Source of the DNA: Lytechinus pictus
Lineage: Eukaryota
Assembly (NCBI RefSeq): GCF_037042905.1
Contig: NC_087245.1
Coordinates: 16,618,001-16,682,000, forward strand
Length of the DNA stretch: 64,000 nt
Direction of reading: 5' to 3'
Made by a program: the position numbers and the translations under genes. Under the pieces are notes generated by a model. That model saw nothing but the letters and a program-made list of their open reading frames with translations. It was not told the DNA's origin and made no database searches. The first letter of the stretch is position 1. The number at the start of each line of letters is the position of its first letter. Below are positions 13,594 to 57,633 of this stretch, in pieces.

Positions 13594-13615
13594 TTAAGGA
13601 CATGCTCATGAAATA

Positions 13616-14950
13616 CAGTGCGTATAAAAAAAACGGGACATATTTGAAAAGTCTATAAAATTTTTGTTTCGAATTATGATCTCTATATTTTGGTGTCAAT
13701 AGGTGCTCTGAGGTCTTATCCTTCAAATGCCATTAAAATAATTTAGTTTCGTTCATGCTTGAGCGAACAGGGAATGTTTTTGTCTGGGGTTAAAAAGGAG
13801 GCTTGCGCCAAATGGCATAAAATGATTAATATGATGGTCGGTCTTCTTGCTAATGAACAGACTTCCTCTTAACCTTTTCATTATCTTTGCCATAATTTTC
13901 GAATTATGCGGTTAAAATTCATTTCCAACTCTACGTAATTGCTTGAATTGTTCTGTTGTTGTTCCTTTTTGATATGTTCTCTTTTAGCTTTAAATATTCC
14001 TTCTTTTTTTAACCGAAGTATGGGAGAGCGTGTTTTTTTTCTTAAAATCCTTTCATTATGTGCTACAAAGGTTATGGTGCCTTTGAACAGTGGCATACTG
14101 ATGGGTGGGGGCTCGGGGTGCTCCCCCTCCCCCCCCCCCAACAAAAAAAATCATGACAAAGAAAAAAAAGTGGAAAGGAAAATAACAGAAAACATAGTAA
14201 GTGAAATGTAATATAATTTTCTGAATTTAAAAAAATTGATATTTTAATAAAAAAGTGGAATTTTTTGCTTGCTCGCTTCACAACTTTTTAATACATTTTA
14301 CCAGATCTGCCATATCTTGCTCCTTCAAAATTGACTCAATACACCATTGCCATTGAAAGACATGAATCCTTTCCTGTTTGTCCTGTCAAGCACATAATTA
14401 AACTTCGTAAAGGATTCAATAACCCCTTGAAAATAGGATTCATATCTTTTTTAGGTACCATGACATAATTTGTTTCACATAATAAAAGGATTTGAATAAT
14501 TACAAATTCTCCTAATTAATAATGCAAATCTTCTTACTTGGGTTGACAAAGAGTCTTCCTTTCTCACCTATGAAGGAAATTCCAAGGTAAAATAAGTTAA
14601 AATGAAAAACAAAATATTTCAGGTAAATAAATAAATTTGTAAATGAAATTTGACAGAATAATTCGAACATTATGGCAAAAATAATGAAAAGTTTAAGAGG
14701 AAGTCTGCTGATTAGCCAAAAATCTAATCATCAGATTTCTCATTTCTGCCATTTTGGCGCAAGCCTCTTTTTGAACACTCGACAAAAAACGTCCCGTGTT
14801 CGCTCAAGCATGAACAGAATTTATTTTTTTTAAATGGCATTTTAAAGATAAGATCTCAGAGCATCTATTAACATCAAAATATAGATATAATGATTTTAAA
14901 CAAATTGTTTATAGACTTTTCAAAACTGTCCCGTTTTTTTATACGCACTG
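13616..14950. mobile_element. Non-autonomous Tc1/mariner-type element with ~300-bp TIRs
   Basis: TA|CAGTGCGTATAAAAAAAACGGGACA ... TGTCCCGTTTTTTTATACGCACTG|TA; inverted similarity spans 13616-13924 versus 14642-14950. Confidence 0.85.
14088..14349. mobile_element. hAT-type MITE nested in the Tc1-like element
   Basis: Ends CAGTGGCATACTGA / TCAATACACCATTG; TSD CCTTTGAA/CCATTGAA (7/8). Confidence 0.65.
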
Positions 14951-16611
14951 TATACTTAGTAATTATACTTGCTTGTAATGAGCTTGATCAATTTGTGACG
15001 AAAAAAACTGATAATTGATATTTAAAGAGAGGTGCACATAATCCTAGCCTATCAAAATCATATACGTTTTTTCATTGTATACAAAATTGAGGCAAAATGC
15101 ATTATCATTAAGAACAATTATATAGATGAATTAGCATGAATAAATCTATATATACAAATAAACACATAGATAAATGAATAAATAAAGAAATAAAGAAACA
15201 ACTAAACAAAAACATAATTGAATAGACTTTATACAACTGGTCAAATTTGATGAAAGAGAAAAAAATGTGTTCTTTTTTTTTTTTATTTCATTGGTTACAT
15301 TTTGCCTCATATAGAGTGGCCAACACAATGTCTCTCTGAACTTTTGAACACAGCTCATTCAGTTAGTTGCCAGGAATCGGAAATCGTGTTTTGAAACGTG
15401 AAAACATTGATTTTATAGGCAGTTAAACTGAAATCGAAAGATGATATATAAAATAAAAACAACAATTACGAGTGTGTTCCATCGCAACATTTCCAAAAGG
15501 GACTGATTGCAAACGAAATGTTTGAAGGAGATAGCAACATATTTACAACATAATATGTTGCCATTTCCCACAAACATTAATACGTTCTACCATATCCTTC
15601 ATACAAATTCATATATTAAGAACATTGGTGGAGATTAAACATTGGATAAGACGAAGGAATTAAGTTTTATAATTTCACTGCCAAAGAACGAATCCTTACA
15701 AGAAAACTTGACCTCAAAAATTTTCGAGTATCTGACGTCATATCCTGACTTGACGCATTAATTAATCATTTTACTCTCACAGATTTAGACAACATCTATT
15801 CTAGTGCTTAAGACGTTTCCATAGATATTTCTATACATTCATATTGTGTAATACATGTTTTTGTCGATGAATCAAAATAATTATTTATGCTTTGTACCCT
15901 TTGTTTATTACCATGCAGTTATGATATTGCAACGAATTTATACTGTGATTATTTTGAATTATTTTCTGTGGAAATGAATTCATATGAATCTTGAATCTTA
16001 AAGACTACAACATCGCTTGTAATGAGCTCGAAACGGTTTGTTACCCCTCCCCCAAAAAATAATAAGAAAGAAAATAAAAAAATGAAAAAATAAACAAACA
16101 ACACAACGCCATTTACATGATTTAGCAATTATTGCCATAGCGGAATGGTATTCCCGATTATGTATTACATTTTTTTAATGGTGTTATAAATATCGGCGAA
16201 TGATGGTTTCGGCTATCACGTTCTTGAATATATGTCGGATTTTTTTCATCATTTTTGTGTTGCAAGATTGAGATAATTCTATATATAGGTCGATGATACC
16301 GAAAAAAGTACACGCCCTATAAAGTCCGGTTTTAGGTCTACCTATTTTTCACAAACTAGTTTTTGCTAAAAATTCAATCAACAAAAGTATGTGATCGGTG
16401 TACTAGGTTTATAAAACCTTGTAACTTTGATCCAATCAAAATGTTGACCATGGGAACGTAAACCTAGATATAATAATCATCAGAAGTTGGGTTTTGAATC
16501 ACTTTCGATATAATAATAACAGGTTATTCAAGTTCACGAGTACACACCTTTGACTGGAAAAGGAACGCCATCTAGAAAATAAGACTATCAAACACTTGCT
16601 GCTATATTATG

Positions 16612-17289
<678 letters not shown>

Positions 17290-31500: not shown

Positions 31501-31651
31501 GGTCTTGGCTAATATTCGGAAGTATAATGTTAAGTAGAAATTGACCATGACGTTGCATTTAAGGCGCAATTCTGTTAATTCAAACATTTCGATGGTTTGC
31601 ATTGTCATGTTTTCGAATTACAATGAGTATAATATGTCGGAGTCTTGTATT

Positions 31652-33139
31652 CATGGCCCTGGAAAGCGGGGGTGCTGGCACCCCCAAAATTTTCCTTGGG
31701 GGTGCTTTGTGTGTTATTTTCCATAGGCAGCACCCCCTGGAAATCTGGTAGGTATGACAAATGACAGAAATGTAATGAAAATGAACGTTTTGTAGGAACC
31801 CCCCTTCAGAATTTTCCTACACAGTGTTGAAATAGTGCTTTAATTTTTTTTTTTTTTTTCAGATCGGAATATTAAATATTTTCAGCTTGCGCTCCGCGCT
31901 CGCATTATTGATTTTCTTGAGAAAAAAAAAAGTATTCTTTCTATCTTAATCTAAACAAGCGCATGCATGTTTATTCAAATATACGCCTTTTTTTATTTAA
32001 AACATGCTTAAATTATGAAGTTTCAGATCAGAATATCAATTTTTTTCTGCTCGTGCTTTGCGCTCACATTATTAATGTAGGAAGAAACTTAAATATGTTA
32101 AAACCCTCAATAATTTCAAACTCTCTGTTAAAAGACATTTCCTCAATCTTGCCTAGGCCGATCAACTGGGATGCAATACTATTCCCCTTTCAGGACTGAT
32201 GCTATAAACTATCATCTCTTTTTTTATATATTACTTTATATAATACTGTTATCACTTTATACGTCTGTACTTTAACAATATCAAATGGACTGATGATTGT
32301 ATATGTATTATCACCATTAATTGTTTTTAATTGTATATAATTGTATTGTTTGTTATCCAGGGCCTCATGGAAGATCAACTTTTGTTGAATGAGCTACCCT
32401 GGTGAAATATGAATAAATAAAAAAAAAAAAAAAAAAAAAAAAAAATACCCATCCTTTTCCTGATTCACAGAACTTGAATTGTTGAAATATGTATCGTCTT
32501 CATGGATAACTGCAGTCCTTATAACAGGTCCCTTTTCGATCAGGCCAGGACGTAGGCTGTATCAAAATTTTCTGCTCGCGGTAATCGTGCTCGCAGTAAT
32601 TATTTGTTACATCTTGTTCAGGATCACAAACATTGCCCAAATTGTTCAATTATCAGCACAATATGAAATTTCCACAATTCTTGGTTCGCGCTTCGCGCTC
32701 GCATTATTCTACAGTTGAAATATGTATCGTCTTCATGGGTAACTGCAAACAGTCTTTATAACAGGTCCCTTTTCAATCAGGCCAGAACGTATATATTAAG
32801 AATTTCTGCTCGCGCTGATCGCGCTCGCAGTAAGTATTTGTTATACTGTATACGCTTCTTGCTCAGGATCACAAACATTGCTCAAAAAGTTCATCTGAAT
32901 GCGCTATAAAACCATCAAACTTGACATGAAAATAATACTAAACATATAAAATTGTATTTTTCCGTATGCTTCACCTGAAAAGTTCTGTCTTATGTGTGTG
33001 TGTGTGTTTGAGGGGTACCCATGCATGTGTGTGTATATAAAAGAACAATGAAAAACTCAATTGTGCCTCCCCAACCTATGAGGAGAGATTTCAGCCCATT
33101 TCAGCACCCCAACTGAAAAAAATCGTTCCGAGGGCCCTG
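31652..33139. mobile_element. Non-autonomous hAT-like element with GCGCTCGC subrepeats
   Basis: Ends CATGGCCCTGGAA / TTCCGAGGGCCCTG; TSD CTTGTATT/CGTGTATT (7/8); related copies at about 51170-55720 and 61950-63330. Confidence 0.8.
32088..32445 (+). mobile_element. 5'-truncated LINE 3' end with poly(A) tail, nested in the hAT-like element
   Basis: Interrupts the host repeat relative to the copy at about 62030-62100; terminal stem-loop CCAGGG...CCCTGG, then AATAAATAA and a long A tail. Confidence 0.65.
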
Positions 33140-42865: not shown

Positions 42866-43070
42866 TTATTCTGGTAAGATATCAGGGTCGACGCCAGTCG
42901 CCTTGCAGGTGATATCCCAAAGTTGTTTGGCAACTTGCTCGTCTTCAGCCAACTTAGACTCCTTTCCCAGGCTACAGTTGGTAAAGTATCCGCCAGAAAG
43001 TTGTGTGATTGATTCGTCGATAGCACAATAGATAGTGGTTTGGGCGCCATCCTTCTCATTTCGCAAGAAT
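42866..43070 (-). CDS. Retinol dehydrogenase 11-14-like SDR, copy 1, exon 5 (last)
   Basis: CAG acceptor; FLRNEKDGAQTTIYCA...SGGYFTNC...AEDEQVAKQLWDIT...PE*, typical of the RDH11-14 C-terminus. Confidence 0.92.
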
Positions 43071-43141
43071 CTGAGCAGAAACGATAAGCACATTTTGTTA
43101 GGATATTTTAGGTTAAGGATAGAATGACAATCAAATCGACA

Positions 43142-45014
43142 AAATAGTCGACAAAGAGCTCAGGAAGGCACGACGAGAATTCATATCGGATCTATCGGTT
43201 CAAGTTAGGATTTCTGGAAATACATTAAAACCAGACGAAAGGATAACGTTGGGATCCAGAGTCTTAAGACTGGAAACCAAACCATTACTGATGATCAAGG
43301 AAAAATCAGACATACTGGCTTAGCAATTCCAAAGCGTATTCTCCAGAGATGTTGGCCAGACTCCTAACCTACCTCAAAGGAATTTCCCAGAATTCCTGAG
43401 ATTGACATTGCAACGAGTGGTATCATAAAATTGTTGAATAAACTGGATACCTTAAAAGCTGCAGGTCCAGACAACATACCAAACCGTATCCTCAAGATTG
43501 CAGCTAGACAATTAGCTCCTGTTCTGCAATTCATATTTAGGCAATCATATGACCAAGGACTTCTTCCTGATGATTGGTGTAAGGCCAACAATGCAGCTAT
43601 CTATACAAGAAGCGCGCAAAGAGTGAAGCAGCCAATTATCGTCCCAAGTCCTTTACTTATGTATGCTATAAACTGATAGCATATAGCCATGATAGCCAGC
43701 TGATGAAACATATTTCCACGAACTCAATCATTTCTGATTACTAACATGCTTTCCTACAGGTTAGATCATGTGATACACAGTTGATTGCTACAATCCATGA
43801 TCTTGCTTCAATCCACAACTGTAAGGAAACGTGTGACATCGCCATCCTTGACTTTAGAAAGACATTCGATGTTGTTCCGCATCAGAAACTGCTGCAGAAA
43901 CTACAAATGTTTGGTCTCCGCAACACGAATCTTGAGTGGATAAGATCCTTTCTGATGCGTCGCTTCCAAAGGACATTGGGAAACAAAAAACATCAAATTG
44001 GTTACCAGTCTTGAGAGGTATACCGCAGGGTACAGTTTTCGGCCCGCATGTTTTCATCATATGACCTTACAGAAACGATATGTTTTACAGCAAGGCTGAT
44101 TAAGCCTACTGACGACTGTATACTCTACAATACCATATCCAGCCCCTCCGATGAGAAATTGCTACAAAAGGGATCTTGACAGCCTTGTCAAGTGGGCTAG
44201 CACCTAGGGATGAAATTCAATGCATCTAAGCGCTCGGCTATGAGGATATCTGGAATATCTAGGAAGAAAGATCCAGGCCATACGATATCACTCTTCTAGG
44301 AATACAACTTAGGGAGGTTAACAGTCATGAATACTCGGGGATCTACATATAAAATAATCCGAAATGGGATAAATAGACACAATATGCAATATCAAATAGT
44401 AAAAAGGTCTTAAACTTTATCAGAAGAAACTTCAATCACTGTTCCAGAAAGATAAAAGAGCGTCTTTATCACACCTTGGTGATACCCCATCTCGAGTATG
44501 TTTGCATTGCATGGCAACCAAGTACAATCAAGAATCTCAAATCTTTTGAAATGGTACAAAGACGGACTTCTCGACTCGTGATGGAGAAGTACAGTAGAGA
44601 AACCAGCATTACACATATATGTCGGAGACACTGGGCCGGAACTCCATAGAGGACGGAAAAAAAAAATATCATCTTCTTTAAGATGATACATGGAGAACTC
44701 CACCTAGATCTACAAAATACACCTCAAATAAGGAAACACGACTGAGACGCCCAAACGATGAACAATTCAAGGTGAACTCTACCTTCATATCAACAACACA
44801 ATTAGCCAGCTCCTTCTTCCCCGAAACAATCACCATTGGAACAATCTCAAAAAAGAAAATATGATCACTTTAAGAAGCTCTGAAACCTACAAAATCCAAC
44901 TACAAAAGGCCCTCCAAAAACCCAAACCCCCAAACCATAGGTAATACCATCACTCTAGTCAGCCCCGAGCAACACTTCCTGGCGGAGGACTTCGGGGAAA
45001 ACGTCTCCAAGGTG
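43142..45014 (+). mobile_element. Decayed 5'-truncated CR1/L2-type LINE (reverse transcriptase pseudogene) in RDH copy 1 intron 4
   Basis: Frameshifted fragments KAAGPDNIPNRILK...DW.KAN, DIAILDFRKTFDVVPHQKLLQKL, GIPQGTVFGP, DDCILY; 3' stem-loop CCCCGAG...TTCGGGG; absent from the same intron of copy 2. Confidence 0.9.
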
Positions 45015-45617
45015 CATCTCCATGATAACATAAAGAGACGACATCTAACAAAAGGGTCTATTAAACTTTCTGCCACATCGGCCTGGTGGTTCCCCATTGG
45101 ATGGTGTGGATGGATTAGGAGGCAGTGTATTAATTTAAATATTGCATAAAATAACGTATATCATACCTACATGGCGTAGTGGTATAATCAATGCACTGTG
45201 AAGTAATTGTTTCCGTCTTAATTTATTGGATTTAAAAGCGAAAGAGTGCATGATCACTTTTGTTTTTACAAGAAAAGGAGCTGTTCCTCATTCTAAAAAT
45301 AATAATTCAATCAGTGGTGTTAATCTCTTTCATGTGTCTTAAAATTATAATGTTCCAACAAAATAACTTGTCTCATAATCTGAGAAATGACATTTCAATA
45401 TTAAGTAATGGCCTTCCCATATTTCTTATTATTTGCTATATAGCCCAATCGTTTTCTCATGACCCATCGGAAGTTCCTTTGTTCTTTCGGCAAATTATAA
45501 TTTTTTTTACAAAGACATTATCCAAATTTTGTATTTTCATGTTGCAGAAGACTGAATTACAAAGCCTAAATATACATAGTATGAACGGCTGATTACAAAA
45601 AAAGGAAACGAACTCAC

Positions 45618-45825
45618 ATTAGAAGGGGCATTCCCACCAAGTAGAGAAAACGTAATATTCCGGACCGTACGGTAACTCGACTGGACTCCCAGATGTTAGT
45701 GTATACAATCCCGGGATTTACTGAATACGCTGTGACACCAGTCCCCGATAGGCGGCGTGCTAACACGTTAGTGAAGTGAATATTTGCCACTTTACTTTCA
45801 AGATAGCGGTTCAACCCAGATACTC
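45618..45825 (-). CDS. RDH-like SDR, copy 1, exon 4
   Basis: Catalytic YxxSK (YLESK), ARRLSGTGVTAYSVNPG; CAG acceptor and GTGAGT donor. Confidence 0.92.
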
Positions 45826-46511
45826 CTGTTAGTGGTAAGATACAATTCTCATTGGTAATTTAAACTTGCCGTATTACAAACTGATATCGATCTCATTCTG
45901 TAAGGTCAAAGTACAAACCTAATTTTGTAACGCACCAAGTTTGGTATACATTTTTAGCAGCGGGAAATGGGAGGGGGGGGGGGTAGGGCAGGTTTTAAAT
46001 ATTGTAATAACATTTTTGGGGCATGAATGTCAGATTGGAACAAATATTACTACATGTTTTCTCCAAAATTGTGATCGAAGTAAAAGAGCAATATTTTTGT
46101 AATTTCTCCCAAAGATTAAGAAGGAAATTGAATATATACTCATCTAAAAATATAGGCCTACTCATCTAACAGGGTAGGCATACTAGTAAGAGGACAGAAT
46201 AACATGAGTTCAACTCTGTGTAAATTGTGGTGTAAAAATACAAATTATATATCCAAATATTCATAGGGTCATTTTAAGAGACAGGGGGGGGGGGGGCTTC
46301 AGCACGGGCGGACCCAGGGGGTGGTGTAGCTACCATTACATGGATCCACCCTTAAACTCCATCCTCAAATCCAATCATGATAACAAAACGGTGCTGATAA
46401 GATTATTTAATAATCATGATTCGCGACGGAAATGGGTTAATCAAAATTATTGTTATCATGTACCATTATGATGTTTATCATCTTTTATCCTAATACCCTC
46501 ATTGTCATTAC

Positions 46512-46712
46512 CTTTGCCTGATATATCTGTGTAATCAATTTGTTTGATCCTGAGGTGACCGAACGATGATACATTGATGATCCGACTGGGGGCACTCTTC
46601 TTAATAAGCTCAATCAACGCCAGAGTTAGCACGAAATGACCAACGTGATTCGTTGCCATGGTGGTATCATAGCCTTCTGGCGTCAGACCACGGTCGGAGA
46701 AATTGACCAGTC
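46512..46712 (-). CDS. RDH-like SDR, copy 1, exon 3
   Basis: ATNHVGHFVLT...KKSAPSRIINVSS; phase 1-1, 201 nt. Confidence 0.92.
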
Positions 46713-47068
46713 CTGTTTGTGTTAGATTTAAATACACATTTAATTAGCCAAAGGATAAAGGAGAAGGAGAATTTTAAGAAGAAGATGAAGAAGAAAAAGC
46801 TTGAAGGAATATATAAAAATGCAAGAACTTTCTCGATGATGTAATTTTTTTTACTATTGCTTGTTGAATTTCTTCCATTTACCCAAATCAGCTCGAGTTG
46901 GACTTAGCCTATAAAAAAAATGTTTAGTGTGAAATTCTCAAATGAGGCTTCCTTTTCTTCATTCTATGAGTTTTGCTGGATTTCGCACCCTAAACAAATT
47001 TTAAACCTATAACTTAACTGAAACTTTAGAATGTTAAATTATACAAAATCAGTTCTATGATCAACTAC

Positions 47069-47311
47069 CTGCATTGTTTATGAGAACGTCAAGTCTCTCC
47101 TCTCCTTTTAGAATTTCGTCTGCGCACTTTTTGACTGAATTCAAGTCTGATAGGTCTATTTGCTTGAAGATGACATTTTCATTTGATGATCTCTTGCGGA
47201 CATCGGCCACTGCTACTTTTGCTTTTGTTGGGTTGCGACATCCCATGATAACCCTAGCTCCTCGGCTAGCAAGGTCAATAGCAGTCTCTCGACCAATACC
47301 AGCATTGGCAC
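47069..47311 (-). CDS. RDH-like SDR, copy 1, exon 2
   Basis: (G)ANAGIG...RGARVIMGCR...DLSDL.SV...LDVLINNAG Rossmann-fold motifs; phase 1-1, 243 nt. Confidence 0.93.
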
Positions 47312-48100
47312 CTGGAAGATAAGAAAAATCTGTCATTTTTTTTAAACCGTGAATGATAACTATTTTTTGGAAAGAAAAAACAAAAAACATGAGAATAAAG
47401 ATATCATGATGCCTATTTTAACTATAGCCGAGCTTTGGTAGCTGTATCACAGCTGTGATGATTACCGGGGATGGTTAATGGATCAGATGCATAAAAATGC
47501 ATTGATGGCGAGCAATTGCTTCAAGCACAAGTAATTGCTAGCCAAGTAAAAATCATGCCTCAGCAAATGCTTAATTTCATATGCATAACCCTTGGCTAGC
47601 CCTTGAACCCTGAAAAATTGTTGGGAGCTAGCAGTGAATTGATGAGAAAATTTTCAAAATTTAAGAACGAAAAAGCTGTTTTGGAGCACTTTGCAGCATT
47701 AGTAGGATGCTTATGACAACATGTACTTCATATTTTTTTATTTTTCAAAATTTCGGAGGTGGGACCAACTCACTGGAGGCAAATGCCCCCCTTGGTGCCG
47801 TCACTGGTCTGGGGTAGAGCCCCCGGAACCTCGTATCTTTAAACATTGCAGATTGCAAAATGGTCTGCTCTTTCATTTGGAATTTGATTATTGTTGAAAT
47901 GAGTTTAAATGTTTACTACTATTTCTTTCGATCTTGGTGATAACTTAGCATTCATGTTCATGCGAAATTGCCGCGAATCCAGAAATTGTCTAAGCGGACC
48001 TTTATATCCTTTTACTTGGTCATAAATACATATATTTTACATTCCCCAAATTATAAAGTAAATAAACAAACCAATGAAAATTACATCTTTGAAAAATTAC

Positions 48101-48338
48101 CTGTTATAAGAACTGTCTTTCCTCTCAGGCTGATGCGACTGTTCACTCGACGGGTACCTGGATGCCATCTTAAGGTTAATCCTCTATTGAAATAGCGATA
48201 TACAGCATGCGATGTGAACACGGTGAAGACGATGCTAGGTAATATACCAAGGGCGACTTTAACAGAAAGAGAAGAGTTGTTAAGCCATTCCAAAGACTGT
48301 TGCAGAAACATCGTCCCGTAATCTTCAACGAGCTCCAT
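48101..48338 (-). CDS. RDH-like SDR, copy 1, exon 1 (N-terminal membrane anchor and start of TGxxxGIG)
   Basis: MELVED...hydrophobic VALGILPSIVFTVF...LRGKTVLIT(G); donor G|GTAATT; spliced CDS 1095 nt = 364 aa with no stops. Confidence 0.88.
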
Positions 48339-50365: not shown

Positions 50366-51430
50366 TAGATTAAAAAAAGTGATTAGAATGTCCTGTTTCC
50401 GTGTTTGGTTTAGTCCTGAATAGTAAAATAAATAGCTTGCGTTTCGCGTTCTTATTTTGTGTATACTTAAATGGGTTATAATCTTGTTCAAGAATTTGTA
50501 CTAATAGTCCAAAAAAGTTTTATTTTTTAGGAAGGCTTATTCCTTTAGTGACAAACATGTACTCGTCTTCGCGTGTATTGGATGCTAGAGGTAGCAAATG
50601 AAGACACCGACGCTCTCGTCATTGACCTCATAATTACTAACCTCTAATTGGACACAAGCGTCACGAAAAATGATATCGATAAGCCATAATGATTGCGTAA
50701 CGCCAAGAAGACAAACATCAAGGAATTCAAGAGCGATCATCGTGAAATTTATTTATTTTATTTATTTATTTCAAAATATTTATTCAGGATAAAAACTTGT
50801 ATCAGCACAATGGCTGTTTTACATCATGGTCCTGAAGGACAAAATATAATCAGTAAAATAAATTCAATATTCATAAGATTAATATACTAGCAACAAAGCG
50901 AATTCGCAAGTTCGCAAGATACAACATCAGACAAAAGGTGTACGCTGTAAAGAACCAAATTAAGATCACTGTCAAACATGAAGGTTTTCATCCGTGAAGA
51001 CTTTAACATCGATCAGACAAGAAATCATCAGACAAGCTCTGAAAACTGACGCGATCACGAAAGCGTGGAAGATATAGACGGCAGGATCCACGTCAGACCG
51101 TCAAGAACGTCACAATCCGAACCCTGTAGCAGATCTCGACAGACTTTAACATGGCCATGGGACATATGGGGAGCGGGGAGCTATTTTTTTTTCTATGGGG
51201 TGCTGCGTGTGTTATTTTCCATAGGCAGCACTATGAGGCGCCGAATGTACCAATATTATATAGAACAATTATTTGTTATATAATCATTATTTATTAAATA
51301 ATAACTATTATTTATATATAATTTACATTTTATTTGTAAATAACTACTATTATATAAAATATCATTTCTAATTATTTATATATAATTCCAAGTAATACTT
51401 CATTATTTGTAAATAATAATAGTTCGACAT

Positions 51431-51790
51431 TCCATTATTTATAAATAATGATTATTTGTTTTTCATTATTTATAAATAATGATTATTTGTTTTTCATTAT
51501 TTATAAATAATGATTATTTGTTTTTCATTATTTACAAATAATGATTATTTGTTTTTCATTATTTATAAATAATGATTATTTGTTTTTCATTATTTATAAA
51601 TAATGATTATTTGTTTTTCATTATTTACAAATAATGATTATTTGTTTTTCATTATTTATAAATAATGATTATTTGTTTTTCATTATTTATAAATAATGAT
51701 TATTTGTTTTTCATTATTTACAAATAATGATTATTTGTTTTTCATTATTTATAAATAATGATTATTTGTTTTTCATTATTTATAAATAAT
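51431..51790 (+). repeat. 31-bp tandem repeat, left foldback arm (11 units plus a partial)
   Basis: Unit TTCATTATTTA(T/C)AAATAATGATTATTTGTTT. Confidence 0.95.
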
Positions 51791-54700
51791 TTGTTGAGTT
51801 TTCCATTATTTATAAATAATGATTATTTGTTAAATAATGAAAACGTCTACTTCATTATTTATAAATAATTTTTTCGAGTGCACCATTATTATCATTATTT
51901 ATAAATAATCATTATTTAATGTTCGAGTTTTCCATTATTTATAAATAAAGATTATTTGTTAAATAATGAAATATCTACTTCATTATTTATAAATAATAAT
52001 TTTGTTTCAATATCCCATTATTTATAAATAATCATTATTTATAAACAATTTTTACAGTTTGCCATTATATACAAATAATCATTATTTATATACAAATAAC
52101 CATTATTTATTAAATAATGCCATTATTTATTAAATAATGCCATTATTTATTAAATAATGGAAAACTCGCTATAACATGCAAATGTGGGACCGCCCATGAT
52201 ATGAATATTCATGATGCGATTTCCTTTTTCGTGATTTTTCTTCACAAATTTTTGTCCATTTCCTCTTCATAATGACATTTCTTGAAGCAATTTTCTAGGG
52301 ATATGGTCTGATTGTAATATTCTTCATTTTCTATATAACTTCGTCTTCGTAGAAATATCAAAAAGTGTAATTTTATACGATTTTTCCTACAGTTCACAAT
52401 CCCCATAGGCGCGCGTGTACGGTAGGGACAACCGGTGAATCGACGGAGTGCTCTTCATCGAAATACTACGTTGGTTGGTCCCCGGAAGTGGCGGGCGGAA
52501 TTTAGCCCGAATCCTCGATGGAAGTCGATCAAGTGCATATGAGCTGAGAGAGTGAAATATCAGTGTACTTGTACAGGCCCTTCTACTTTTTATAAATATT
52601 TCTTGTTGCTTTTTTTGTTAAGTTAATTTTTCCTGGTGTAGAGATAAGTTTCAGTTCTAATAATGCACTTCAAATACATTTTGGAGTGTCTGTTTGAGGC
52701 GTTTGGGGCGATTTCACCCTAGCCCCAAAATGCTCGCAACGACAATACGGGGGCATGATGACCCCTAAATTTTTAAAAACTTATTTTTCTATTGAAAATT
52801 ATCACAAAATTCACCAAAAGTGTGCACGAAAGCCTTCGTATTTCACTTTTAAAACTCCAAAAAGTGCCCAAATGACAAGCTTGGTCGCTTCGCTGTGTCG
52901 CTTTCAACTTGAGAACGTTTACGCGTCTGCTTCCCCCCCCCCCCCCCCCTCCTGCGAAAGAAATTCTGTATACGGCCATGCTCTAAAGAGCCTGGCACAT
53001 TGATTTATGTATACTTTCATTTTCATTATTTTTATCTCATTATCAACATGGCCTTACGCAGAATTTTTTACAGGGGGGCCGGGGCCGGAGCATGACGCGC
53101 GTAAACTTTCTCAAAAAAATCTTGAAAGCGAGACAGCCACGGGACCAAGCCCAAATGACAAGCTTGGTCGCTTCGCTGTCTCGCTTTCAACTTGAGAACG
53201 TTTACGCGCGTCTGCCCCCACCCCCCGAAAGAAATTATGTGAACGGCCATGCCCAAAAGAGCATATGGCACATTGATTTATATGTACTTTTCATTTTCAT
53301 TATTTTTATCACATTATCATCATGGCCTTACACAGAATTTTTACCGGGGGGGGGGGGGGGGAGCAGCTAGGACGCGCGTAAAGTTTCTCAAAAAAATCTT
53401 GAAAGCGAGACAGCGACGCGACCAAGCTCAAATGACAAGCTTGGTCGCTTTGCTTTTTCAAGATTTTTATGAGAAAGTTTACGCGCGTCCTGCTCCCCCC
53501 ACCCCCCCCCCCCCCCCGGAAAAAATTCTGCGTAAGGCCATGATGATAATGAGATAAAAATAATGAAAATGAAGTATACATAAATCAATGTGCCAGGCTC
53601 TTTAGAGCATGGCCGTATACAGAATTTCTTTCGGAGGAGGGGGGGGGGGGGGAAGCAGACGCGTAAACGTTCTCAAGTTGAAAGCGACACAGCGAAGCGA
53701 CCAAGCTTGTCATTTGGGCACTTTTTGGAGTTTTAAAAGTGAAATACAAAGGCTTTCGTGCACACTTTTGGTGAATTTTGTGATAATTTTCAATAGAAAA
53801 ATAAGTTTTAAAAAATTTAGGGGTCATCATGCCCCCGTATTGTCGTTGCGAGCATTTTGGGGCTAGGGTGAAATCGCCCCAAACGCCTCAAACAGACACT
53901 CCAAAATGTATTTGAAGTGCATTATTAGAACTGAAACTTATCTCTACACCAGGAAAAATTAACTTAACAAAAAAAGCAACAAGAAATATTTATAAAAAGT
54001 AGAAGGGCCTGTACAAGTACACTGATATTTCACTCTCTCAGCTCATATGCACTTGATCGACTTCCATCGAGGATTCGGGCTAAATTCCGCCCGCCACTTC
54101 CGGGGACCAACCAACGTAGTATTTCGATGAAGAGCACTCCGTCGATTCACCGGTTGTCCCTACCGTACACGCGCGCCTATGGGGATTGTGAACTGTAGGA
54201 AAAATCGTATAAAATTACACTTTTTGATATTTCTACGAAGACGAAGTTATATAGAAAATGAAGAATATTACAATCAGACCATATCCCTAGAAAATTGCTT
54301 CAAGAAATGTCATTATGAAGAGGAAATGGACAAAAATTTGTGAAGAAAAATCACGAAAAAGGAAATCGCATCATGAATATTCATATCATGGGCGGTCCCA
54401 CATTTGCATGTTATAGCGAGTTTTCCATTATTTAATAAATAATGGCATTATTTAATAAATAATGGCATTATTTAATAAATAATGGTTATTTGTATATAAA
54501 TAATGATTATTTGTATATAATGGCAAACTGTAAAAATTGTTTATAAATAATGATTATTTATAAATAATGGGATATTGAAACAAAATTATTATTTATAAAT
54601 AATGAAGTAGATATTTCATTATTTAACAAATAATCTTTATTTATAAATAATGGAAAACTCGAACATTAAATAATGATTATTTATAAATAATGAGAATAAT

Positions 54701-54794
54701 GGTGCACTCGAAAAAATTATTTATAAATAATGAAGTAGACGTTTTCATTATTTAACAAATAATCATTATTTATAAATAATGGAAAACTCAACAA

Positions 54795-55061
54795 ATTATT
54801 TATAAATAATGAAAAACAAATAATCATTATTTATAAATAATGAAAAACAAATAATCATTATTTGTAAATAATGAAAAACAAATAATCATTATTTATAAAT
54901 AATGAAAAACAAATAATCATTATTTATAAATAATGAAAAACAAATAATCATTATTTGTAAATAATGAAAAACAAATAATCATTATTTATAAATAATGAAA
55001 AACAAATAATCATTATTTATAAATAATGAAAAACAAATAATCATTATTTATAAATAATGGA
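54795..55061 (-). repeat. 31-bp tandem repeat, right foldback arm (8 units plus a partial)
   Basis: Reverse complement of the left-arm array. Confidence 0.95.
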
Positions 55062-57633
55062 ATGTCGAACTATTATTATTTACAAATAATGAAGTATTAC
55101 TTGGAATTATATATAAATAATTAGAAATGATATTTTATATAATAGTAGTTATTTACAAATAAAATGTAAATTATATATAAATAATAGTTATTATTTAATA
55201 AATAATGATTATATAACAAATAATTGTTCTATATAATATTGGTACATTCGGCGCCTCATACAGCACCACCTGGAAATCTGGCAGGTATGATAGATGAAAG
55301 AAATGTAATGACATTGAACGACGTTTTTTTAGGAACCCTCCGCCAACTTCAGAATTTTCCTACTGCTTAAAATAGTGCTTAAATTCACCCTTTTTCAGAT
55401 CGGAATATTAAATATTTTCAGCTCGTTCTCCGCGCTCGCATTATTGATTTTCATAATTAAAAAATGTATTTAGAATGCCTATACCTATCCTGTTCATGAT
55501 TACAAAAAGTGTTTAGAATGTCCAGTTTTTAGGTCGGAATGTAACATATTTTAACTTGTGCTTTGATTGTTGAGATATGTATCGTCTTCATGGTCCTTAT
55601 AAAAGGTCCCTTTTCGATCAGGCCAGAAGGTATATCAAAAATGTATTTGTTACATACACATCTTTGTTTAGAATCACAAACATTGCTCAAAATGTTCAAT
55701 TTTCCTGAACCTCGAGAAAAGCGGGGAACCACCCTAAATAATCAATGTTTACTTTCCGTGCTTCTCATGGCAGTTGAAATTTTCCGTGTTCAAAAAGCAG
55801 TTCACCGTGCATGCCGTGTTATGAACGTCGAAATCATGATATATTTATTTATTCATTCATTTATTAGAAAATATTTATACAGGATAAATATATCAGATCT
55901 ATTGCTGTTTTACATCATTGTCCTGAAAGATTAAAAACACATAAAGTTACAATATTATGATAATGATAATACTAATAATGGTCTTTATCAAGCATCAGAA
56001 CATTCTTGGCAGCCAATGGCTGGATTACAAATGTTTTTAACACGGTCAAAAGATTCACATATAAATTTGATAGAACAGTGTACTACAAAATATACAAAAT
56101 ACAATATATTTTTATATACATATGAAATATAATTAATCAATATACACAAAAAAGGGCGAACTCCATCCAACCTTGCAAAGATATCTAGAAAAAGGGAAAC
56201 ATTTGATTGGTGGTACGGTATGAGGTTGATTAAGCAGTTTGAAAAACAAAGATATTAAACTGACAAAGGAGAACAAAAGCGTAACAATGGGCACAGTAAA
56301 TGGGATTGTTGGTAATTGGATTAAAATGGGGGTAAATAAAACGGTATAAAGATACAAAAGGCTCTTTGCAAAGCTGAATGGAGCACTGAACTAAAGTATG
56401 AGACATTGTTCGAAACTTTAAACTAAACTCAAAACGTAATCAAAAAGACCCATGCAGCCGGCCCCAGCAACAGGCTGATCCGAATGAATAGAGAAAAGAG
56501 AAAGAAGCATGATGTTGGATATCCCAACGGTTTCCACTCTATGATGGAAAATACATTTAAATGTATATATAAAAAAAGAAGTATCCACACATGGATATTA
56601 CCCGCATCACTAGTCCGCTGGTCAGATTTTCCTCCCTGATTATATACATGATGAAGCTGCACGATCTGGTGGCGAAGTTAACACGGAAGCATGTCGGTGT
56701 CATCAAGGAGCCACACGGTGTCATTGCGTTTGAAGTACAGAAGCTGAACCCAGGTGTCATTTCGACATCACACTTTGAGAAATTTAGGCATTGTTCAGAT
56801 GTTCAGGATGTGACTACCTCATCCAATGTGACTCCATTTTCCAAAATACCTCTGCCGGCTTTGCGTCAAGTCTTATCCAAGTTAAATTATGTTTGTTCTT
56901 TTTAATCAAAATGAAAAGGGTTCATTTATCTAAAGATTATTGAAAATAATGATTTATATAACTATAACTATTTTAGTAAAAGATGATATAAATAAAGAAA
57001 AAAAATGAGTTAATGATATTTTTTTTCTATTCGCTTGTTTGTGATTTTTTTTTTGGGGGTGGCGAATTTATTCTAAGATGAAATTTTAAATAAAACTGTA
57101 TTTTGGAAAGAGAAAATGCTCCCATGCCGAACTGATAATTTGGGTAGGCGTGTGTGTGTGTGTGGATGAGGAACACCTTTTGCCAACTTATCAATAACCA
57201 CATATAATTTCTTTGGCGATATGTGAAAAAGGATGGGAAATTCAAAAGTAGACACCCTGTCCTCCTTTTCTGACCTAAATTCTGATTTACGACCTGGATA
57301 TCATTACGTAACAAAACAAACACAAACAATAAACTTGCCCAAACTTAAATTGAAATGACTATTTTATCACACTCAAATAATGTTCTTTCATTTGCTATAT
57401 ATATACATTACATTTCTTTCAAGCAAATGAGATGTTTTGCATTTTCTTCAAATAATATATTTCGTTTGGCACATATCACAACGATATCAAAGTAAACTCC
57501 TTCATTCATTCATTTCTAGAAAATTCCAATACAAAATTTATGTCACTCAAAGTTAATTTATAGTCATGTTCATGTGTTGACATCCACAATCAACTTTCCG
57601 ATAATTAGGCAACCCCAAATTTCTAAGGTTTAA

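Follow-up and report, generated by a model that had tools for sequence, protein, structure and literature searches.

The 64,000-nt window of Lytechinus pictus DNA analysed here, in which all positions are counted from the first letter, carries two tandem retinol dehydrogenase (RDH) 11/12-like genes, both on the minus strand, at 42869–48338 (copy 1) and from 59001 to at least 61637 (copy 2). Exon 1 of copy 1 is 100% identical to a protein named for Lytechinus pictus, and an exon neighbouring the element described below is 99% identical to a retinol dehydrogenase named for that species, which makes the host a Lytechinus sea urchin; for copy 2 no first exon was found within the window. An intron of copy 1 holds a stretch of approximately 1.8 kb (about 43150–44900, plus strand) that is absent from copy 2 and that looks, by eye, like a remnant of a LINE reverse transcriptase in decay. 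A foldback element of 4,029 bp (51232–55260) separates the two genes, with the 5′-end of copy 1 on one side and the 3′-end of copy 2 on the other. Its distance from the copy 1 ATG (48338, minus strand) is 2,894 bp, in agreement with the distance of about 2.9 kb upstream that had been given in an earlier, sequence-only reading of the window. Nothing was seen that would tie the element to the RDH gene or its expression.

The element begins with TATGAGGCGCC and ends with GGCGCCTCATA, and the inverted match of the two ends cannot be extended outward by a single base. The terminal 20-mer has only two sites in the window, namely the two element ends, and two matches were found in none of 100 shuffles. 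The sequence CAGCAC abuts the element on both sides, at 51226–51231 and 55261–55266 (plus strand), and forms an exact 6-bp target site duplication (TSD), a length that comes from one insertion only. The left arm (51232–53131, plus) and the right arm (53456–55260, minus) are 99.8% identical over 1,717 aligned bases (51232–53045 vs. 53544–55260). They differ by four substitutions (51891, 52775, 52837 and 52954) and three gap events (a 93-bp array indel, 3 nt in a C-tract and 1 nt at 53015), and only in the innermost ~85 bp (53046–53131 vs. 53458–53543) does the likeness fall to 89%. The sequence-only reading had described near-perfect arms flanked by a duplicated CAGCAC. The duplication is exactly as described, and the differences it listed at 51891, 52837, the C-tract and the array are all present, but those at 52775, 52954 and 53015 had been overlooked, and the description does not hold for the innermost part of the arms.

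The insertion interrupts a dispersed repeat, of which the left part is found at 51126–51225 and the right part at 55267–55464 (both plus). An uninterrupted copy lies at 31650–31928 (plus), where positions 31721–31745 read CCATAGG-CAGCAC-CCCCTGGAAATC with a single CAGCAC (31728–31733), and in four public sequencing runs the uninterrupted repeat likewise continues beyond 51231, in 142, 145, 52 and 5 contigs, respectively. Together these uninterrupted copies fix the ends of the element and its 6-bp TSD. When the insertion is removed in silico, the flanks align to the repeat at 31721 across the site, with 69% identity over 450 columns and ~80% in the right flank. The copy at 31721 is thus another member of the dispersed repeat and not an orthologous empty allele; the sequence-only reading was right that this copy defines the ends and the TSD, but it took a paralogue for the empty target site. 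In the four runs examined for an empty allele (X3, X12, X14 and X7) the unique left flank was not covered along its length. Short inverted motifs of the host repeat itself flank the insertion point (51216–51231 and 55267–55276). As a consequence, automatic tools overrun the true arm ends by 16 bp, and they could misread the TSD in similar copies. Farther out, a short repeat tail is found on both sides of the element (50747–50839 and 55843–55930, 82% alike).

Each arm runs from a 31-bp end through degenerate AT-rich sequence, a 31-bp tandem array and more degenerate arrays to a 705-bp inner domain. The 31-bp array has 14 copies with 10 perfect units in the left arm (51399–51831, plus), and 11 copies with 7 perfect units in the right arm (54754–55093, minus), which has one 93-bp unit fewer. 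The variants within the array follow the pattern TTCTTCTTCT (T,T,C) and make up a 93-bp higher-order repeat, and the 93-bp indel between the arms is exactly one such higher-order unit. The 31-bp unit contains the 18-bp palindrome CATTATTTATAAATAATG, which occurs 16 times in the element and nowhere else in the window. In the left arm, the degenerate AT-rich arrays (51832–52160, plus) have periods of 129, 20 and 17 bp and share an ATTATTT core with the 31-bp array. They are followed by the inner non-repetitive domain (52161–52865, plus; 38% GC, 29 CpG), of which family copies were seen in four runs.

The centre of the element (52866–53719) is built with a 277-bp period from units that each consist of an imperfect ~200-bp palindrome and a ~65-bp spacer. 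The order is a half palindrome, a spacer, the palindrome M2 (~205 bp, 53047–53251), a spacer, the palindrome M3 (~220 bp, 53321–53542), an inverted spacer and a half palindrome, and the 324 bp between the arms (53132–53455, plus) form an unpaired loop. DNA folding of 52780–53810 gave a single long stem from which two hairpins branch, at −505.6 kcal/mol, a value obtained without a shuffle control. The strand switches at about 53455, within the right half of M3, and 6 bp are deleted where the strands join. This right half is chimeric: its loop side is of the right type, while outward it consists of an inverted left-type half that includes the insertion of the left half. In this outer part the diagnostic letters outside the G-tract follow the left half of M2, although the overall identity of the right half is slightly higher to the left half of M3 (91%) than to that of M2 (88%). 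In their CATGGCC ends and G-tracts the palindromes of the centre are similar to short inverted-repeat elements found in the host. They lack a TSD, and in the aligned public runs they showed no dispersed flanks, so that the capture of an element of that kind is no more than a guess.

The longest stop-to-stop frame in the element is 127 aa, and among the 6 of its 34 frames that were scanned with Pfam none scored above the cut-off, the best being DUF6165 (E 0.028, below the cut-off). This is in line with the sequence-only reading, which had seen no credible ORF and had proposed a young, non-autonomous, modular foldback with an outer array and an inner domain. No transposase was found within the 64-kb window. 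Four microRNA-precursor matches in Rfam were all far under the gathering scores and are accounted for by the hairpins. A match of the terminal 20-mer in metagenome contigs was confined to 20 bases in unrelated DNA, and five matches of the terminal 16-mer in viral contigs ended with those bases; both were set aside as chance. The conclusion that the element is a real, recent, gene-less and non-autonomous insertion with mirror-image arms is supported.

Seven public sequencing runs, from seven studies (24 were listed), were compared by means of two stretches of the element that are free of long repeats; the listing of runs by record gave no RNA holder. In run X3 a contig matches 51232–51400 with 0 differences and continues into a different 29-nt flank that begins exactly at the terminus, which identifies a second insertion and a mobile family. 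The contig depth in X3, a rough measure, is 54.7 at the element end; it is 49.8 and 42.2 in parts of the centre that are present twice and 23 in the spacer that is present once, about the 2:2:1 that the layout of the element predicts. The inner arm reaches 86–111, about twice the depth of the present type of centre, as in a multi-copy family with a variable middle, and this suggests a sister subfamily. Across the M3 junction X3 has a depth of only 1.5–7, which marks the present centre as a rarer variant, and X1 has a 133-nt contig over 53439–53560. Joints and depth peaks in the runs at 52933–52953 and 53495–53519 were disregarded as effects of C-tracts. In X12 and X14, where the organism is labelled differently, many contigs are 85–92% alike to the arm end 51246–51400, and thus the family is likely to be older than the present copy and to occur in a related species as well.

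Run X23 is a raw RNA run that was sampled to about 6 in 100, while for X3, X1 and X8 the type (DNA or RNA) is only guessed. A>G and T>C together make up 92 of the 121 variant places in X23, and G>A and C>T only 8. The corresponding fractions for A>G and T>C are 31 of 45 in X1 and 4 of 21 in X3, with a Fisher p of 1e-6 between X23 and X3, as far as the guessed types of X1 and X3 allow the comparison. The changes are consistent in strand: at sites that include 52290, 52625, 52673 and 52697 A>G was seen solely in reads whose first mate lies on minus, and at 52418, 52423 and 52449 T>C solely where it lies on plus, whereas 52319 and 52721 vary on both strands and are family variants. This fits A-to-I editing if the library is of the usual stranded type, and such editing is the likely source of the A-to-G changes in X23. 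As the X23 reads lack the letter that the present copy has at 52721, the RNA signal comes from other copies of the family and not from the present locus. We suggest that transcripts through family copies would fold into long hairpins that ADAR then edits, which we regard as quite likely. Palindromic DNA transposons are described as ADAR targets, and hyper-editing is documented in sea-urchin RNA (PMC5625713). The palindromic Harbinger repeats of Xenopus tropicalis described there are likewise self-complementary DNA transposons with hyper-edited RNA, but they belong to another superfamily and measure about 200 bp, against a stem of 1.8 kb here (PMC5625713).

As to the superfamily, the element has the termini TAT..ATA and a 6-bp TSD (in its one insertion), and these are the marks given for IS3EU, namely TA..TA ends and usually a 6-bp TSD (PMC10045372). 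For GingerRoot the literature reports a 6-bp TSD in 72 of 77 elements and terminal inverted repeats (TIRs) of 100–150 bp (PMC6839031), and the 4 kb of the present element lie within the GingerRoot range of 3.9–12.9 kb. The arms of 1.8–1.9 kb with internal tandem arrays are unlike those short TIRs. An IS3EU-like repeat that contains an internal repeat of 182 bp has been noted in a paper that calls the group little analysed (PMC11934779). IS3EU families of rust fungi end in TAYGG..CCRTA (PMC12730594), whereas the present element ends in TATGA..TCATA and has no transposase; as TAYGG is described for the rust-fungus families only, it is not a superfamily-wide criterion. Judged by its ends and TSD, the element has probably been moved in trans, by cut-and-paste, by an IS3EU/GingerRoot-type DDE transposase encoded elsewhere. 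Such a transposase would recognise the TAT..ATA ends, excise the element and insert it with a 6-bp stagger, and the AT-rich palindromic repeats may, by analogy with Galileo, add transposase binding sites.

For the mirror form, we lean somewhat toward a fold-back template switch at the internal palindrome M3. The ancestor would have been one-ended, with tandem 277-bp units. At M3 the nascent strand would have switched onto the complementary palindrome half one unit back, and copying of the left arm in reverse would then have yielded the second end and the 324-bp loop. As the 85 bp next to the loop are only 89% alike, the strand switch is older than the identity of the arms, which have since probably been kept alike by copying from arm to arm, through gene conversion or gap repair. 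Both arms have A at position 52721, where X3, X1 and X8 show G throughout their depth, as do 17 of 17 X23 reads; the site is not a CpG, and one mutation has therefore likely been copied between the arms. At 52775, 52837 and 52954 the family letter is retained on one arm each, so that these look like fresh mutations. Since contigs drop rare variants, the case for arm copying rests on the one clear site at 52721. We also considered, as a rather doubtful extension, that the mirror form is part of a life cycle in which the central palindromes are a turn-around site and one arm templates the other in the course of transposition or afterwards, so that each new copy would start with identical arms and hairpin RNA would feed control of the whole family by ADAR or small RNAs.

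In structure the element is a foldback, with long inverted arms made up of a tandem-repeat outer and a non-repetitive inner domain, and it shares with FB, Tetris and Galileo these modular arms, a short variable middle and the lack of an ORF; long modular inverted arms are also known from TU. The TSD of TU is 8 bp and the termini of Polintons are AG..CT, whereas the element has a TSD of exactly 6 bp and ends in TAT..ATA. The TSD thus differs from the 8–10 bp of Mutator-type foldbacks (FB, Tetris and TU) and from the 7 bp of Galileo, and CAGCAC is not GTAGTAC. The sequence-only reading had made no use of the ends for classification, and what it said of the foldback class accordingly holds for the architecture of the arms and not for the Mutator or P type of the foldbacks it named, given the TA..TA ends and the 6-bp TSD. 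The published comparison gives a TSD of 8–10 bp for Tetris, which is Mutator-type (PMC4079207), and one of 7 bp with the consensus GTAGTAC for Galileo, of the P superfamily (PMC2775673). The centre of 277-bp palindromic units is a further difference from these foldbacks. A classical Mutator- or P-type foldback is therefore improbable, even though the flanking, outer tandem-repeat and inner domains and the variable middle are shared (PMC4079207). It is hardly more credible, and if anything slightly less so, that a non-autonomous derivative of a Polinton/Maverick was integrated here by a Polinton integrase. Polintons are indeed described with a 6-bp TSD, with long TIRs, which measure 584 bp in one copy from a lizard, and from sea urchins (PMC3014272), all of which would suit the element, but its termini differ, it is gene-less at 4 kb, and the ORF survey (6 of 34 frames by Pfam) found no gene of that group in it. 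Ginger has a 4-bp TSD and TGT ends (PMC2836005).

A third alternative, in which the element is real but an unclassified transposase moved it and its mirror form came about as the TIRs gradually lengthened and were converted, instead of by a single switch, is unlikely, yet carries more weight than the preceding two. The foldback form is said to have arisen repeatedly through loss of the transposase and elongation of the TIRs (PMC4079207), the identity of the arms drops toward the loop, and the termini depart from TAYGG. Against this stand the single sharp strand switch within a pre-existing palindrome and the match of the ends and the TSD to a superfamily that is already described (PMC10045372). 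An assembly artefact of chimeric fold-back reads is unlikely, and is the least probable of all these explanations. It is true that the palindrome is near-perfect and that no record in the compared runs spans flank, arm, centre, arm and flank. On the other hand, the host repeat resumes in register past an exact 6-bp duplication, which a fold-back read artefact would not give, the arms differ by 4 substitutions and 3 indels, X3 has the same end beside another flank, and pieces of the centre are present in X1, X3 and X23.

Taken as a whole, we favor as reasonably probable a recent IS3EU-type insertion whose mirror form arose by a fold-back template switch, with subsequent copying between the arms and edited RNA from the family. 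The element is a foldback of a design already known, with IS3EU-type ends, and no new system. Searches of mainly freely accessible papers listed neither an IS3EU foldback nor a paper on the present family, and IS3EU consensus sequences in the supplements of papers may bear on a family match. If our reading is true, IS3EU/GingerRoot joins the superfamilies that yield foldback elements. In the present copy, a clean case, the point of the strand switch can be read, and across the family it can be tested by counting how long inverted arms form and stay identical. In Lytechinus, palindromes of this kind probably give rise to long double-stranded RNA and to rearrangements, and complicate assembly.

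Elsewhere in the window, an older inverted-repeat element of ~1.3 kb is found at 13613–14953, with arms ~80% alike over 360 bp and ends reading TA-CAGTGCGTATAAAAAAA; it looks like a short element of the Tc1/mariner type. A (GTA)n-type microsatellite of 680 bp, with about 229 units, occupies 16612–17289.
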